From Escherichia coli (GTDB taxonomy: Bacteria > Pseudomonadota > Gammaproteobacteria > Enterobacterales > Enterobacteriaceae): DNA of 64,000 bases. Position 1 is the stretch's first letter; every line of letters starts with the position of its first letter. Shown piece after piece: positions 1,410 through 62,286 of this stretch. The notes beneath the pieces were generated by a model that made no database searches, was not told the origin of the DNA, and saw nothing but the letters and a program-made list of their open reading frames with translations. The position numbers and the translations under genes are program-made. The stretch lies in the NCBI RefSeq assembly GCF_024502345.1, contig NZ_JALDNN010000002.1. One strand, 5' to 3'.

Positions 1410-2605
1410 GGAAGGTGCGAACAAGTTCCTGATATGAGATCATCATATTCATCCGGAGCGCATCCCAGAGGGACATCATGAGCCATCAACTCACCTTCGC
1501 CGACAGTGAATTCAGCAGTAAGCGCCGTCAGACCAGAAAAGAGATTTTCTTGTCCCGCATGGAGCAGATTCTGCCATGGCAAAACATGGTGGAAGTCATC
1601 GAGCCGTTTTAACCCAAGGCTGGTAATGGCCGGCGACCTTATCCGCTGGAAACCATGCTACGCATTCACTGCATGCAGCATTGGTACAACCTGAGCGATG
1701 GCGCGATGGAAGATGCTCTGTACGAAATCGCCTCCATGCGCCTGTTTGCCCGGTTATCCCTGGATAGCGCCTTGCCGGACCGCACCACCATCATGAATTT
1801 CCGCCACCTGCTGGAGCAGCATCAACTGGCCCGCCAATTGTTCAAGACCATCAATCGCTGGCTGGCCGAAGCAGGCGTCATGATGACTCGAGGCACCTTG
1901 GTCGATGCCACCATCATTGAGGCACCCAGCTCGACCAAGAACAAAGAGCAGCAACGCGATCCGGAGATGCATCAGACCAAGAAAGGCAATCAGTGGCACT
2001 TTGGCATGAAGGCCCACATTGGTGTCGATGCCAAGAGTGGCCTGACCCACAGCCTGGTCACCACCGCGGCCAACGAGCATGACCTCAATCAGCCGGGTAA
2101 TCTGCTTCATGGAGAGGAGCAATTTGTCTCAGCCGATGCCGGCTACCAAGGAGCGCCACAGCGCGAGGAGCTGGCCGAGGTGGATGTGGACTGGCTGATC
2201 GCCGAGCGTCCCGGCAGGGTAAAAACCTTGAAGCAGCATCCGCGCAAGAACAAAACGGCCATCAACATCGAATACATGAAAGCCAGCATCCGTGCCAGGG
2301 TGGAGCACCCGTTTCGCATCATCAAGCGGCAGTTCGGCTTCGTGAAAGCCAGATACAAGGGGCTGCTGAAAAACGATAACCAACTGGCGATGTTATTCAC
2401 CCTGGCCAACCTGTTTCGGGTGGACCAAATGATACGTCAGTGGGAGAGATCTCAGTAAAAACCGGAAATAACGCCAGAAATGGTGGAAAAAATAGCCTAA
2501 ATAGGCTGATTCGATGTGTTTGCGGGAAAAAAATCGGCCCAGATCCGCGAAATTTTAATCAGCGAGTCAGCTTGGGAAGAAATGACCTGCTTATTCGCAC
2601 CTTCC
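1410..2605 (+). mobile_element. IS5 copy A (about 1196 bp)
   Basis: Terminal GGAAGGTGCGAA...TTCGCACCTTCC inverted repeats; InsH-like transposase ORF; flanks CTAA / TTAG are not an identical direct repeat. Confidence 0.9.
1478..2458 (+). pseudogene. IS5 transposase InsH with in-frame TAA replacing a Tyr codon (..IEPF*PKAGNG..)
   Basis: ORF track splits into 1506..1694 and 1655..2458; compared with intact copy at 19749..20729 ([11 protein letters not shown]). Confidence 0.8.
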
Positions 2606-2924
2606 TTAGATTATTTTCTTCGTGCAATTCATTGAACCAGTCTTGAATTGCCTGCACTAGTTCGGGGTGCTTAACTGCATTGACCGTTCTGAATAAGGAT
2701 GAAATGGCAATACTGACATCATCAAACCCTCTTATTACGGAACGATTACGTGCCGTGAGAAATCGGTTAAAGTCTGGCGTGCCTGGGGTAATAGTTACTG
2801 TAGCCATGCCGTAATGTTCATTTTTACTTTGCACGACCCTACGGCTATTATCGGACGCATGAGGGGAGCGGGTATTTACGTCAGGTACCTTATGCTCGCT
2901 TTCATTCATTGTTACATCGGTCAT
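2606..2924 (-). pseudogene. Hypothetical protein, 3' end replaced by IS5 copy A sequence
   Basis: 121-aa ORF 2559..2924 whose last 15 codons lie inside the IS5 terminus; overlaps upstream gene by 4 bp (operon). Confidence 0.5.
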
Positions 2925-3406
2925 TGTGCCACCTCTGATTTTGAGTATTGACGGACTTTTCGTCCCAGTTCGATATATGCAGCATGGTAGAACTCAAGTA
3001 ATTCTCTGTAGGGTTCCAGTAATCCCTCCGTTTTTTCAATCATTTCATATTCCCAGCTGGCATGATTAACAAAGCAGCTTTTCGTATATTTTCCACTTTT
3101 CATCGGTGAAATCCGTTTCGACATGTGACTAGGTGGCCTGTTTTTATACGGGCTAAACTGATGCCAGGTAATGGTGACTTTCCTGGCATTACCAATTAGC
3201 TCAACTTTTGGTGCATATGAACCCAGATACTCCTTCTTTAGAGTTTTGCTATCCCTGGGTAAATTCCTCTCAATGTGATTCCGTTCTTTCCACTCGATCC
3301 AATAATTGGTGATCAGTTCTTCAGCCTCTTCTCGAAGAACATCGATTTGTGAGCGCAATAAAGTACGTGAAATCTCTAATGACTTTAATAGCTTCGATTT
3401 AGACAT
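2921..3406 (-). CDS. Hypothetical protein (161 aa), first gene of a two-gene operon
   Basis: ORF with AT-rich promoter-like region upstream; ATGA overlap with the downstream ORF; no recognisable family. Confidence 0.5.
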   Translation of the reverse strand: MSKSKLLKSLEISRTLLRSQIDVLREEAEELITNYWIEWKERNHIERNLPRDSKTLKKEYLGSYAPKVELIGNARKVTITWHQFSPYKNRPPSHMSKRISPMKSGKYTKSCFVNHASWEYEMIEKTEGLLEPYRELLEFYHAAYIELGRKVRQYSKSEVAQ

Positions 3407-3669
3407 GGGGCCTCCTGATGTGAAATCACTATACCGAAGTGATTTTCAATTTTTTTTCACGAACGGGACTTTTTTCTGTGAATTTTTTCGAGAATTTTGC
3501 ATGGCAAATTTAAGAATGGAGGAAGCACTGAGAGTGAGTGACATCAGATGTAAACGGGAACGGCCAAAAGGTCCGCATTTTATCGTGGAAGAAAAGTAAC
3601 TTTTCCAGCAATGCTTATTGCTGAGATCGTGATCTGAAAAGAACTGTTTTACCTACTAAGTTATACATC

Positions 3670-3850
3670 TATCTAGTGCCACTTTTTAAAGGAAAGTGAC
3701 CCTATGATTTTGACGCATAGTGCCACTTTTAAAAAAAGTGACCCTATGTCGTGATTACATAGGGTCACTTTTCATCAAGAAGTGACCCTATGTCGATGGT
3801 GCATAGGGCCACTTTTCAGCAAAAAGTGACCCTATGTAGTAGTCATGTTA
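3670..3850. repeat. Four tandem palindromic repeats CATAGGG(T/C)CACTTTT-N6-8-AAGTGACCCTATG (operator or centromere-like array)
   Basis: Direct reading of sequence: four near-identical 13-bp-arm palindromes spaced about 10 bp apart. Confidence 0.7.
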
Positions 3851-4163
3851 AACAATCGAAAAAATAATCATGCTTACGCGCATTTTTCCCTAAGGTTATT
3901 GCTACTTAATGCCGATAACGACTCAGGCTTTGAGGTTTTTTTATACGGTTCACATTTCGTTAGCAAGGTCAGGGTTTTTTGATAAAATTCTGGTTAGTTT
4001 GGTTAAAAAGTGTTACAAGTATGGGTAATGGCTGAAAGGTTAGTTTTAAGGTTCAAAGCGGCAGTATTAAAATTCCAAAAGTTACTTTTCATCCTTCAGA
4101 ATCCAGACCTTAATTTCATGTAGAAGATTCGTACAATTGTATTGGCGCAAGGACAATCCGCAC

Positions 4164-60407: not shown

Positions 60408-60623
60408 TCAAACTTCTTTCGCCTGGTTCTCGACCGGCTGATAAAGTTTGCGGTAGTGTTCTAATCGCTCCAGAAACATCGCCGCTTTCTCTTCCGGGAT
60501 CTCTTCCGGTACGTGACTCAGGCGAGGTGATTTCTTCAGATACTCCATAAATGCCTGACTGGACGCCATAAAATCGACGGCTTTGTCGATGACTAGTGGT
60601 ACGTTTTCGCCAAGTTTGCCCAT
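60408..60623 (-). CDS. Hypothetical small protein (71 aa) downstream of mtlR
   Basis: ORF only. Confidence 0.4.
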
Positions 60624-60774
60624 AACGTCGTCCTCCTCATGATTCCTCTCTTCAGAATGGACAATTAAGGGCGATCCGTTTGAGGAAAATGTGCGGATTC
60701 TCGTGACGGCATGCTAAAAAAGAGATCTGCATAACCATTTCTCTTAAATTACAATAAATTCATGGGATTACTAA

Positions 60775-60886
60775 GGAAGGTGCGAACAAGTCCCTGATAT
60801 GAGATCATGTTTGTCATCTGGAGCCATGGAACAGGGTTCATCATGAGTCATCAACTTACCTTCGCCGACAGTGAATTCAGCAGTAA
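60775..60886 (+). mobile_element. IS5 left-end fragment (about 112 bp)
   Basis: Identical to the first about 112 bp of IS5 copy E, then replaced by a Tn3-family IR. Confidence 0.85.
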
Positions 60887-60923
60887 GGGGTCTGACGCTC
60901 AGTGGAACGAAAACTCACGTTAA
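60886..60923. repeat. Tn3-family 38-bp terminal inverted repeat (solitary)
   Basis: GGGGTCTGACGCTCAGTGGAACGAAAACTCACGTTAAG, exact match to the Tn1/Tn2/Tn3 IR as recalled. Confidence 0.85.
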
Positions 60924-61090
60924 GCGATTGTGGCTGAGAAAAACCAAAGGATCCGGCGAGGATCCTTTGGTGTGCTGACATGACCAGTTTCTTTTGGGAT
61001 ATTTTTTCCCTGCATGAAGTCCTTTATGTCCTGATCATAATGCCATTAAAAATTCTATGCTATGGCTTCGCTATTTTAGACATTCCCTAA

Positions 61091-62286
61091 GGAAGGTGCG
61101 AACAAGTCCCTGATATGAGATCATGTTTGTCATCTGGAGCCATGGAACAGGGTTCATTATGAGTCATCAACTTACCTTCGCCGACAGTGAATTCAGCAGT
61201 AAGCGCCGTCAGACCAGAAAAGAGATTTTCTTGTCCCGCATGGAGCAGATTCTGCCATGGCAAAACATGGTGGAAGTCATCGAGCCGTTTTAACCCAAGG
61301 CGGGCAATGGCCGACGGCCCTATCCGCTGGAAACCATGCTACGCATTCACTGCATGCAGCATTGGTACAACCTGAGCGATGGCGCGATGGAAGATGCTCT
61401 GTACGAAATCGCCTCCATGCGCCTGTTTGCCCGGTTATCCCTGGATAGCGCCTTGCCGGACCGCACCACCATCATGAATTTCCGCCACCTGCTGGAGCAG
61501 CATCAACTGGCCCGCCAATTGTTCAAGACCATCAATCGCTGGCTGGCCGAAGCAGGCGTCATGATGACTCGAGGCACCTTGGTCGATGCCACCATCATTG
61601 AGGCACCCAGCTCGACCAAGAACAAAGAGCAGCAACGCGATCCGGAGATGCATCAGACCAAGAAAGGCAATCAGTGGCACTTTGGCATGAAGGCCCACAT
61701 TGGTGTCGATGCCAAGAGTGGCCTGACCCACAGCCTGGTCACCACCGCGGCCAACGAGCATGACCTCAATCAGCCGGGTAATCTGCTTCATGGAGAGGAG
61801 CAATTTGTCTCAGCCGATGCCGGCTACCAAGGAGCGCCACAGCGCGAGGAGCTGGCCGAGGTGGATGTGGACTGGCTGATCGCCGAGCGTCCCGGCAGGG
61901 TAAAAACCTTGAAGCAGCATCCGCGCAAGAACAAAACGGCCATCAACATCGAATACATGAAAGCCAGCATCCGTGCCAGGGTGGAGCACCCGTTTCGCAT
62001 CATCAAGCGGCAGTTCGGCTTCGTGAAAGCCAGATACAAGGGGCTGCTGAAAAACGATAACCAACTGGCGATGTTATTCACCCTGGCCAACCTGTTTCGG
62101 GTGGACCAAATGATACGTCAGTGGGAGAGATCTCAGTAAAAACCGGAAATAACGCCAGAAATGGTGGAAAAAATAGCCTAAATAGGCTGATTCGATGTGT
62201 TTGCGGGAAAAAAATCGGCCCAGATCCGCGAAATTTTAATCAGCGAGTCAGCTTGGGAAGAAATGACCTGCTTATTCGCACCTTCC
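61091..62286 (+). mobile_element. IS5 copy E (transposase with the same TAA nonsense as copies A and B)
   Basis: IS5 termini; ORFs 61187..61375 and 61336..62139 split by an in-frame stop; flanks CTAA / TTAA. Confidence 0.9.

Follow-up and report, generated by a model that had tools for sequence, protein, structure and literature searches.

The question raised by this locus is how one and the same inactivating change came to lie in three separate copies of an insertion sequence. Of the five IS5-type elements found in the 64,000-nucleotide stretch of Escherichia coli DNA analyzed here (the window), three carry an identical premature stop codon in the transposase gene. The first-pass annotation had proposed two routes by which a dead lineage could have multiplied, i.e., mobilization in trans by an intact transposase, or recombination between copies. 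The evidence described below favors the second. The mutation probably occurred once and then passed between copies residing together, through crossovers and gene conversion of short patches.

IS5-type elements in the window

A scan for terminal repeats and BLAST identified five full elements, the number expected from the first-pass annotation: copies A (1410–2605, plus strand, 1196 bp), B (6001–7195, minus strand, 1195 bp) and E (61091–62286, plus strand, 1196 bp), and the ISKpn26-type copies C (19602–20797) and D (32968–34163), both on the minus strand. The ten terminal-repeat cores pair at a spacing of 1195–1196 bp (the chance expectation in the window scan was 0.31 matches), and the 12-bp cores are identical in all five copies. 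The elements have the features of the IS5 group of the IS5 family, i.e., a length of ca. 1.2 kb, terminal inverted repeats of ca. 16 bp (GGAAGGTGCGAA...) and a single DDE transposase of ca. 326 aa with DUF772 and DDE_Tnp_1 domains. They share with the IS5 of E. coli K-12 (ins5A; IS5 family, IS5 group) the length of 1195–1196 bp, the terminal inverted repeats, the 326-aa DDE transposase and the CTAA-type targets. There is also a sixth, truncated copy, a 113-bp 5' fragment with a K-12-type left end (60775–60887, plus strand) that ends where a Tn3-family terminal repeat starts. The plasmid is an mcr-10-bearing, IS-rich resistance plasmid.

Only copy C encodes an intact transposase (CDS 19749–20729, minus strand; 326 aa), in which the domains PF01609 (DDE_Tnp_1, 1.1e-35) and PF05598 (DUF772, 3.3e-21) were recognized. 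The frame is the same in A, B, D and E, interrupted by one stop in each, and C is thus the only copy in the window with the uninterrupted frame of an autonomous IS5. By translation, A, B and E all have TAA at codon 45 (A 1610–1612; B 6993–6995, minus strand; E 61291–61293), upstream of both Pfam domains. This codon is TAT in C and D, while K-12 IS5, unlike A, B and E, has TAC; relative to the latter, the stop is a C to A change (TAC to TAA, Tyr45 to stop). Copy D differs from intact ISKpn26 by a private GAG to TAG change at codon 231 (33403–33405, minus strand), within the DDE domain, and by four private missense changes. In all these points (the stop shared by A, B and E, the different lesion of D and the integrity of C alone) the first-pass annotation was right.

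Mosaic structure of the copies

The copies are mosaic, with tracts from two parental types (IS5 as in E. coli K-12, and ISKpn26) that differ at 107 columns. PGAP uses the name ISKpn26 for an IS5-like element found on plasmids of Klebsiella and Enterobacter. C and D are of this type throughout, and the C haplotype is annotated in CP147132 as "IS5-like element ISKpn26 family transposase." Copy A is ISKpn26-type at columns 1–83, K-12-type at columns 95–524 and ISKpn26-type again from column 698 to the end. Copy E has a K-12-type left part containing the TAA, an ISKpn26-type patch at columns 212–230 and an ISKpn26-type right part, and copy B is, right end included, mostly of the K-12 type, with patches of the ISKpn26 type. 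Column for column, K-12 IS5 is matched by the left parts of A, B and E and by the right end of B; unlike K-12 IS5, the right parts of A and E are ISKpn26-type, and none of the three is purely K-12-type.

There are at least 11 distinct TAA-bearing haplotypes, the comparison at the level of single bases covering some 35 copies. The K-12-type tract common to all of them lies between columns 84 and 211 only, i.e., it spans at most ca. 128 bp. The stop common to A, B and E probably reflects identity by descent in a common sequence tract, not chance. The combination in copy A of a left end like that of C with a nonsense-bearing body had been taken to suggest recombination between copies. The chimera is indeed real (columns 1–83); however, it is no marker of the arrival of the stop, since this chimeric left end predates the plasmid and occurs also with TAC. 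Column 685 (Leu206Pro) was considered as a lineage marker or second lesion and dropped, as an ISKpn26-type copy found in a relative (copy F, see below) also carries Leu206Pro, which is therefore probably the normal ISKpn26-type state.

Flanks and target duplications

Read in the orientation of the element, the flanks are CTAA/TTAG in A, CTAA/ACAG in B, TTAG/CTAG in C, CTAA/CTAA in D and CTAA/TTAA in E. Therefore, as had been noticed before, only D has a target duplication in the window (TTAG on the plus strand, at 32964–32967 and 34164–34167). Duplications of 4 bp at targets of the CTAA/CTAG/TTAG type are present also in the A-site and F copies of relatives. The absence of duplications in A, B, C and E is attributable to recombination after insertion, and at copy A the crossover is demonstrated by a right flank that comes from a different ISKpn26 insertion. 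The left flank of A is a conserved site downstream of repB; its right flank is that of ISKpn26 copy F, which in CP116408 has a TTAG/TTAG duplication, and the crossover between A and F is located to the right of column 884. The interpretation of mismatched flanks as the product of homologous recombination, already advanced in the first-pass annotation, is thereby supported for copy A. The window does not contain the original right flank of the A site, on its tyrosine recombinase side, and the reciprocal product of the exchange between A and F was therefore not located. Since A-right and C-left both read TTAG, they were also considered as halves of one site; this pairing was not supported, as the reconstructed 596-bp empty site was not matched contiguously in any of 72,556 plasmids, and A-right pairs instead with copy F in CP116408.

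Copy B is bordered on the left by an IS110-family element and on the right by ACAG..., where relatives have a diguanylate-cyclase flank at that site. Copy E and its two flanks recur without a single base difference in an independent plasmid of Enterobacter cloacae (CP104841). Copy D, next to the DUF2254 and betT genes, is an old insertion that is degenerating in situ, and the copies at its site are intact in some other plasmids. T-left, as we have called the junction of the TAA copy that is most frequent among public plasmids, is present in the window as a 156-bp segment (38052–38207, plus strand) without IS5, the sequence running on into an ORF (38196–38564).

The same sites with either allele

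All of the TAA copies with a known left junction (ca. 50, made up of the fetched copies and of ca. 39 plasmids that a junction search showed to have T-left) use one of four, A, B, T or E, and none of them is at a new insertion site outside these. The fetched TAA copies have ca. seven right junctions. The fixed junctions carry either allele. At the A (repB) site, TAA is found in the window, in four fetched relatives and in LT883141, and TAC in two; in the relatives this copy is flanked by a perfect CTAA duplication and usually carries TAA. The related plasmids are of the IncFIA/FIB type and include CP054225, CP147132, CP116408, MT219824, CP056626, CP060076 and LT883141. The T-left junction has TAA in ca. 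39 plasmids and was taken as TAC in four. At the B-left junction, two of 11 plasmids are 100% identical to copy B (TAA), while the other nine differ by one or two bases and have an annotated intact transposase, with TAC in the three that were fetched. The same applies to complete flank pairs, T-left/F-right having TAC in CP147132 and TAA in our L029, and B-left/B-right TAC in L020–22 and TAA in L028. There are even two pairs of haplotypes that differ at the stop-codon base alone: copy A paired with the copy at the repB site of CP054225/CP147132, and the CP026206 copy at T-left paired with its counterpart in CP147132. The mosaics, the haplotype diversity around the TAA and the presence of both alleles at the same flank pairs all support the recombinational spread that had been proposed.

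Distribution of the TAA allele in public records

The TAA allele is real and already public as an annotated pseudogene allele (PGAP reports an "internal stop"). It was found in 47 of 2955 matching PLSDB plasmids, belonging to at least seven genera, and in 24 of 1921 matching E. coli records, and these records come from many laboratories and years. The 5426 E. coli genomes have 6759 places with chromosomal IS5, and only three of these appeared as TAA records; the two that were fetched are both inside the T-site island. In E. coli, none of the TAA copies seen lay at a new chromosomal site, though many of the genomes carry active IS5, and an exact scan with the 32-nt TAA context returned nothing from 100,044 species-representative genomes. 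A look-up of the ORF starting at Met60 (Gln138 variant) gave nine places. Six of them (L038–L043) were set aside, being not TAA copies but IS1-truncated IS5 beside betT/DUF2254, and the other three are short contigs with TAA and no junction. Nothing specific was found in the literature on an IS5 nonsense allele or on IS5 gene conversion. Where near-identical plasmids differ in having TAC or TAA, some cases could be due to errors of short-read polishing in the repeats.

Origin and spread of the shared stop codon

The most probable course of events would start with one C to A change (TAC to TAA) in K-12-type IS5 sequence, for which we infer a single origin, and which would have inactivated the transposase by a stop ahead of both recognized domains. 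Plasmids of this kind carry many IS5/ISKpn26 copies that are 92–99% identical, so that host homologous recombination would act on them, reciprocal crossovers producing flank swaps, inversions or deletions, and short non-reciprocal patches copying small tracts between resident copies. Such exchanges have probably carried the stop into copies at pre-existing sites, A, B and E among them, which would then be inert passengers and not newly transposed elements. Where both flanks have been kept, gene conversion would be the mechanism; it is deduced and not seen directly, because a converted tract has no visible ends where donor and recipient do not differ.

Mobilization in trans would mean that TAA elements with intact repeats were moved by the transposase of C or of a chromosomal IS5, i.e., that they are non-autonomous and still transposing. 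The identical terminal-repeat cores and the intact transposase on the same plasmid agree with it, and so does the repB-site copy, with its perfect CTAA duplication and TAA in five sequenced relatives (the four fetched and LT883141). If TAA was already present when that copy inserted, mobilization in trans must have happened. However, this sole duplication-bearing site also carries TAC, and A, B and E are all devoid of target duplications in the window. A trans-mobilized element should be found at multiple independent sites, each with its own duplication; the TAA copies with known left junctions are instead confined to four of these, with no new chromosomal site in E. coli despite the many genomes with active IS5. 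In K-12 the IS5 transposase acts mainly in cis, as concluded by the authors, and none of 60 new insertions was of a mutant IS5 copy (PMC11677980). We therefore consider this route, although it had been put forward in the first-pass annotation, unlikely. It is quite improbable that the stop base was misassigned among pooled repeats during assembly or polishing, leaving fewer than three true TAA copies. The change is at a homopolymer boundary (TTTTACCCC versus TTTTAACCC) and close relatives differ in which copy has the TAA, a pattern that mis-polishing could yield. Yet A, B and E retain dozens of copy-specific differences, indicating that the repeats were not collapsed, the allele is found in the 47 plasmids and 24 E. 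coli records of varied provenance mentioned above, and E with its flanks is identical to the independent E. cloacae record.

That both alleles are found at one site, on haplotypes without any other difference, would also fit point mutation and reversion, i.e., the same C to A change taking place separately in several copies, through a mutable site or because inactivation is favored. This is highly improbable. Selection for inactivation would give many different lesions and not a single base change, the allele is restricted to 24 of the 1921 E. coli records, and in more than 3000 plasmids TAA at codon 45 was never seen on an ISKpn26-type background, which speaks against both a hotspot and selection at that position. 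A functional stop, with read-through or a regulatory truncated product (the N-terminal 44 aa, or a protein restarted at Met60) kept for its function, has a negligible probability. The allele does persist across at least seven genera, and the stop precedes both Pfam domains and is followed by in-frame ATG codons at positions 60 and 66. But inspection of the context revealed no Shine-Dalgarno-like sequence before Met60, a start there would cut off the first residues of the DUF772 domain, and the repB-site TAA copies in CP056626 and CP060076 have gained further substitutions. TAA is, besides, the most efficient stop codon in E. coli. Recoding would go with a lineage-wide stop, a recoding signal and purifying selection persisting downstream; the allele is instead rare, classified as a pseudogene by PGAP and missing from ISKpn26-type copies, so that the read-through contemplated in the first-pass annotation has no support. 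There is an extremely slight probability that the 44-residue peptide or the Met60 protein is a trans-dominant inhibitor of IS5/ISKpn26 (cf. the Tn5 inhibitor protein and IS1 InsA), spread by gene conversion and stabilizing IS-rich plasmids.

Comparison with other IS elements

[quoted passage not shown] As in the TAA lineage, mutated elements exist there beside active copies; they were not recovered in the new insertions, which parallels the lack of new sites with TAA. They differ in having missense and indel changes and no nonsense codon, and in being chromosomal and single-site. The shared stop most likely reflects routine plasmid decay and reshuffling, its distribution being explained by ordinary recombination between repeats, and provides a worked example of diverged IS5/ISKpn26 copies that swap flanks and internal patches on an mcr-10-bearing plasmid. 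This is relevant to the reconstruction of plasmid histories and to the use of target duplications or IS variants as markers. Single-base alleles in repeats can shift between copies or be mis-polished, and should not be taken for evidence of transposition.

Plasmid reorganization mediated by IS has been reported for IS26 (PMC4471558), and ectopic recombination in IS elements is likewise on record (PMC3004938). As in the reorganization treated in those reports, a multi-copy IS acts here as portable homology on resistance plasmids, resulting in flank swaps, inversions, deletions and mosaics. Unlike the transposase-driven cointegration of IS26, the exchange in this plasmid apparently relies on the homologous recombination of the host, acting on diverged copies of IS5 and ISKpn26.

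IS5 copies and their inactivating mutations

The terminal repeat core of IS5 matches the window 11 times, where 0.31 matches are expected by chance; with BLAST, this defines five full IS5-type elements: copy A (1410-2605, plus strand), copy B (6001-7195, minus strand, 1195 bp), copy C (19602-20797, minus strand), copy D (32968-34163, minus strand) and copy E (61091-62286, plus strand). There is also a K-12-type left-end fragment of 113 bp at 60775-60887. When each copy was translated from the start codon common to all, only copy C gave an intact protein (19749-20729, minus strand, 326 aa), with the domains DUF772 at residues 51-124 and DDE_Tnp_1 at residues 138-312. 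Copies A, B and E have the same TAA at codon 45 (1610-1612; 6993-6995 on the minus strand; 61291-61293), which is TAT in copies C and D. As both domains start after residue 50, this stop lies upstream of the two. Copy D carries a stop of its own, GAG to TAG at codon 231 (33403-33405, minus strand), and four missense changes; none of its five coding differences from copy C is silent. The flanks, in element orientation, are CTAA/CTAA in copy D and mismatched in the others: CTAA/TTAG in A, CTAA/ACAG in B, TTAG/CTAG in C and CTAA/TTAA in E. The first-pass annotation had described the shared TAA, the separate inactivation of copy D (by a point mutation not specified as TAG), the sole intact transposase in C and the sole target duplication in D, all of which hold.

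The site of copy D, with both flanks (hypothetical genes on one side, DUF2254 on the other), recurs in at least nine plasmids of Enterobacter and E. coli (99.8-99.9% identity), and in some of these the ISKpn26 transposase is annotated as intact. Copy D is an old insertion decaying in situ, in contrast to the TAA copies.

Distribution of the nonsense allele

An 82-bp probe with the stop at its centre, counted only at 100% over its full length, was found in 47 of the 2955 matching PLSDB plasmids, from Escherichia, Klebsiella, Citrobacter, Salmonella, Enterobacter, Raoultella and Providencia, and in 24 records (21 plasmids and three chromosomes) among 5426 complete E. coli genomes. An exact 32-nt scan for the TAA allele gave none in 100,044 species-representative genomes. 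The same stop placed on an ISKpn26-type background had no full-length exact match in more than 3000 plasmids; three partial exact matches (counted, the records not itemised) are taken to be the three E-type plasmids because that probe equals copy E over its right 56 bases. The allele is thus genuine and rare, mostly carried on plasmids and restricted to the K-12-type tract. PGAP labels the public copies pseudogenes with an "internal stop". A different route of truncation is seen in Enterobacter-type chromosomes and large contigs (L038-L042): an IS5-type copy next to betT/DUF2254 is interrupted by an IS1 around codons 45-59, and the Met60-start ORF that remains is the one given by the TAA copies.

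The TAA copies are mosaics. In an alignment of the five copies, a K-12 chromosomal IS5 and copies from related plasmids, two parental sequences differ at 107 columns: K-12-type IS5 (1195 bp, TAC at codon 45) and an ISKpn26-type element (1196 bp, TAT at codon 45), to which copies C and D belong. The stop is a C to A change in the K-12-type TAC. Copy A is ISKpn26-type at columns 1-83, K-12-type at 95-524 and ISKpn26-type again from 698 onward, in agreement with the C-type left end on a nonsense-bearing body noticed earlier. Copy E is K-12-type in its left part with an ISKpn26-type patch at columns 212-230, and copy B has two K-12-type ends with ISKpn26-type patches between them. The collected copies include at least 11 different mosaics that carry TAA, and the only K-12-type tract common to all of these lies between columns 84 and 211. 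Two pairs of haplotypes are identical except for the stop-codon base.

Junctions of the TAA copies

The TAA copies are not independent insertions. Sixteen were fetched from other records with the 82-bp probe or with copy A and copy E as queries. Ten plasmid and two chromosomal copies had the same left junction, here T-left (...TCATGTTTAGCTAT), conserved over only 125-159 bp and followed at the right by variable flanks (methyltransferase, ferritin-like or ttr side); four were homologues of copy A at its repB site; two had both E flanks, one of them base-identical to copy E. A junction probe for T-left with TAA matched 34 plasmids at 100% identity; in five further plasmids it had a single mismatch, with no CDS annotated. 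When the Met60-start ORF was looked up in a large assembly collection, only combinations of junctions already seen came back. In total, the allele has four left junctions (A, B, T and E) and about seven right ones.

Both alleles occur at the same junctions. At the repB site, with its CTAA/CTAA duplication, TAA is present in CP116408, MT219824, CP056626, CP060076 and LT883141, and TAC in CP054225 and CP147132, otherwise identical to copy A. The B-left junction was found in 11 plasmids, two of them 100% identical to copy B (TAA) and nine one or two bases off with an annotated intact transposase, TAC in the three fetched; an NCBI contig (L028) has TAA with both canonical B flanks. Four plasmids have T-left with an annotated intact transposase, confirmed as TAC in CP147132, where T-left is paired with the right flank of copy F, a separate ISKpn26-type insertion known from CP116408; the same pair carries TAA in L029. 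This is a four-gamete pattern, which requires recombination inside a tract of ca. 130 bp or repeated identical mutation.

Crossover was directly demonstrated at copy A. To the right of the repB-site copy, relatives have CTAA and then a gene for a tyrosine recombinase; in the window the right flank is TTAGATTATT... and then the mobI region. In CP116408 this flank adjoins copy F, which has a TTAG/TTAG duplication, so that copy A of the window is A-left joined to F-right. A difference between copy A and F at column 884 places the crossover further to the right. Window positions 1405-11670 are collinear with CP147132 (46748-36492), which confirms the re-joining of entire segments at IS5 copies. 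With these flanks and the allele swaps, the earlier proposal that recombination between copies reshuffled the plasmid is supported. In addition, the tetranucleotides in L016 and L020 (CP030920 and CP116408; B-left and T-right both CTAA, T-left and B-right both CTAT) suggest that an old reciprocal crossover between two insertions, each with a duplication at one time, may have given rise to the two widespread copies.

Probable origin and redistribution

The best-supported reading is that the TAC to TAA mutation would have had a single origin, and that host homologous recombination among co-resident IS5 and ISKpn26 copies would have redistributed it. Crossovers would account for swapped flanks and lost duplications, and short-patch gene conversion for allele changes at sites keeping both flanks; conversion tracts are invisible where donor and recipient are identical. 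Trans-mobilisation, the other route of spread put forward in the first-pass annotation, could be read into the perfect duplication of the repB-site copy, usually found with TAA, but is disfavoured by a published study of K-12, in which neither of two mutated IS5 copies turned up among 60 new insertions although nine copies were active, and whose authors concluded in favour of a mainly cis-acting transposase (PMC11677980). No copy observed here needs it. Polishing errors could lie behind some TAC/TAA differences between near-identical assemblies, the change being at a TTTTA/CCCC homopolymer boundary. Within the window, however, copies A, B and E keep dozens of copy-specific differences, which makes the collapsed repeat first envisaged as an artefact unlikely.

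It is established that copies of an insertion sequence provide portable homology through which plasmids are rearranged and mosaics form. The elements of the window are ordinary IS5-family members, the stop corresponds to a pseudogene allele already present in public annotation, and nothing here requires a new mechanism.

Other features of the window

The 156-bp T-left segment also occurs in the window without an IS5, adjoining an IS1 fragment (37863-38051). It leads into an ORF of 122 aa (38196-38564), in which the junction point coincides with the end of the fourth codon; no right flank known from other records continues this sequence. Two ORFs (38851-39873 and 46481-47557) score as IS110-family (RNA-guided) transposases, and a third element of this family adjoins copy B (7196-8400). 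Where relatives have a near-identical flank, 150 bp separate the start of copy B from the start codon of the adjacent IS110 transposase, so that the IS5 copy lies within the putative non-coding 5' region of that element. A second case of an IS110 element close to an IS5 left end is an IS5708 at 125 bp from the T-left copy in other plasmids. The 113-bp IS5 fragment (60775-60925 region) ends exactly at the start of a Tn3-family terminal repeat (GGGGTCTGACGCTCAGTGGAACGAAAACTCACGTTAAG), a boundary 203 bp upstream of copy E; this 203-bp segment, followed by an IS5 left-end fragment, is also found in plasmid CP022441 of Klebsiella sp. LY.

Four 100%-identical copies of a ca. 820-bp element, annotated as IS26 in related plasmids, are located at 21748-22567, 55997-56819, 59011-59833 and 63231-64000 (the last cut by the window end), forming two inverted pairs that bracket short segments. 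Between copy C and one of them, two overlapping small ORFs of 113 and 93 aa (21007-21610, minus strand) were detected, the shorter with weak matches to helix-turn-helix antitoxins; beside the same C-left flank, CP147132 has an annotated RelE/ParE toxin and HTH gene. Finally, a gene for colistin resistance of the MCR-10 family (about 52098-53717), which scores 1314 bits where the cut-off is 1250, has a XerC-type tyrosine recombinase gene (50655-51731) directly upstream of it, and the surrounding 20 kb are 99.9% identical to an Enterobacter ludwigii plasmid.
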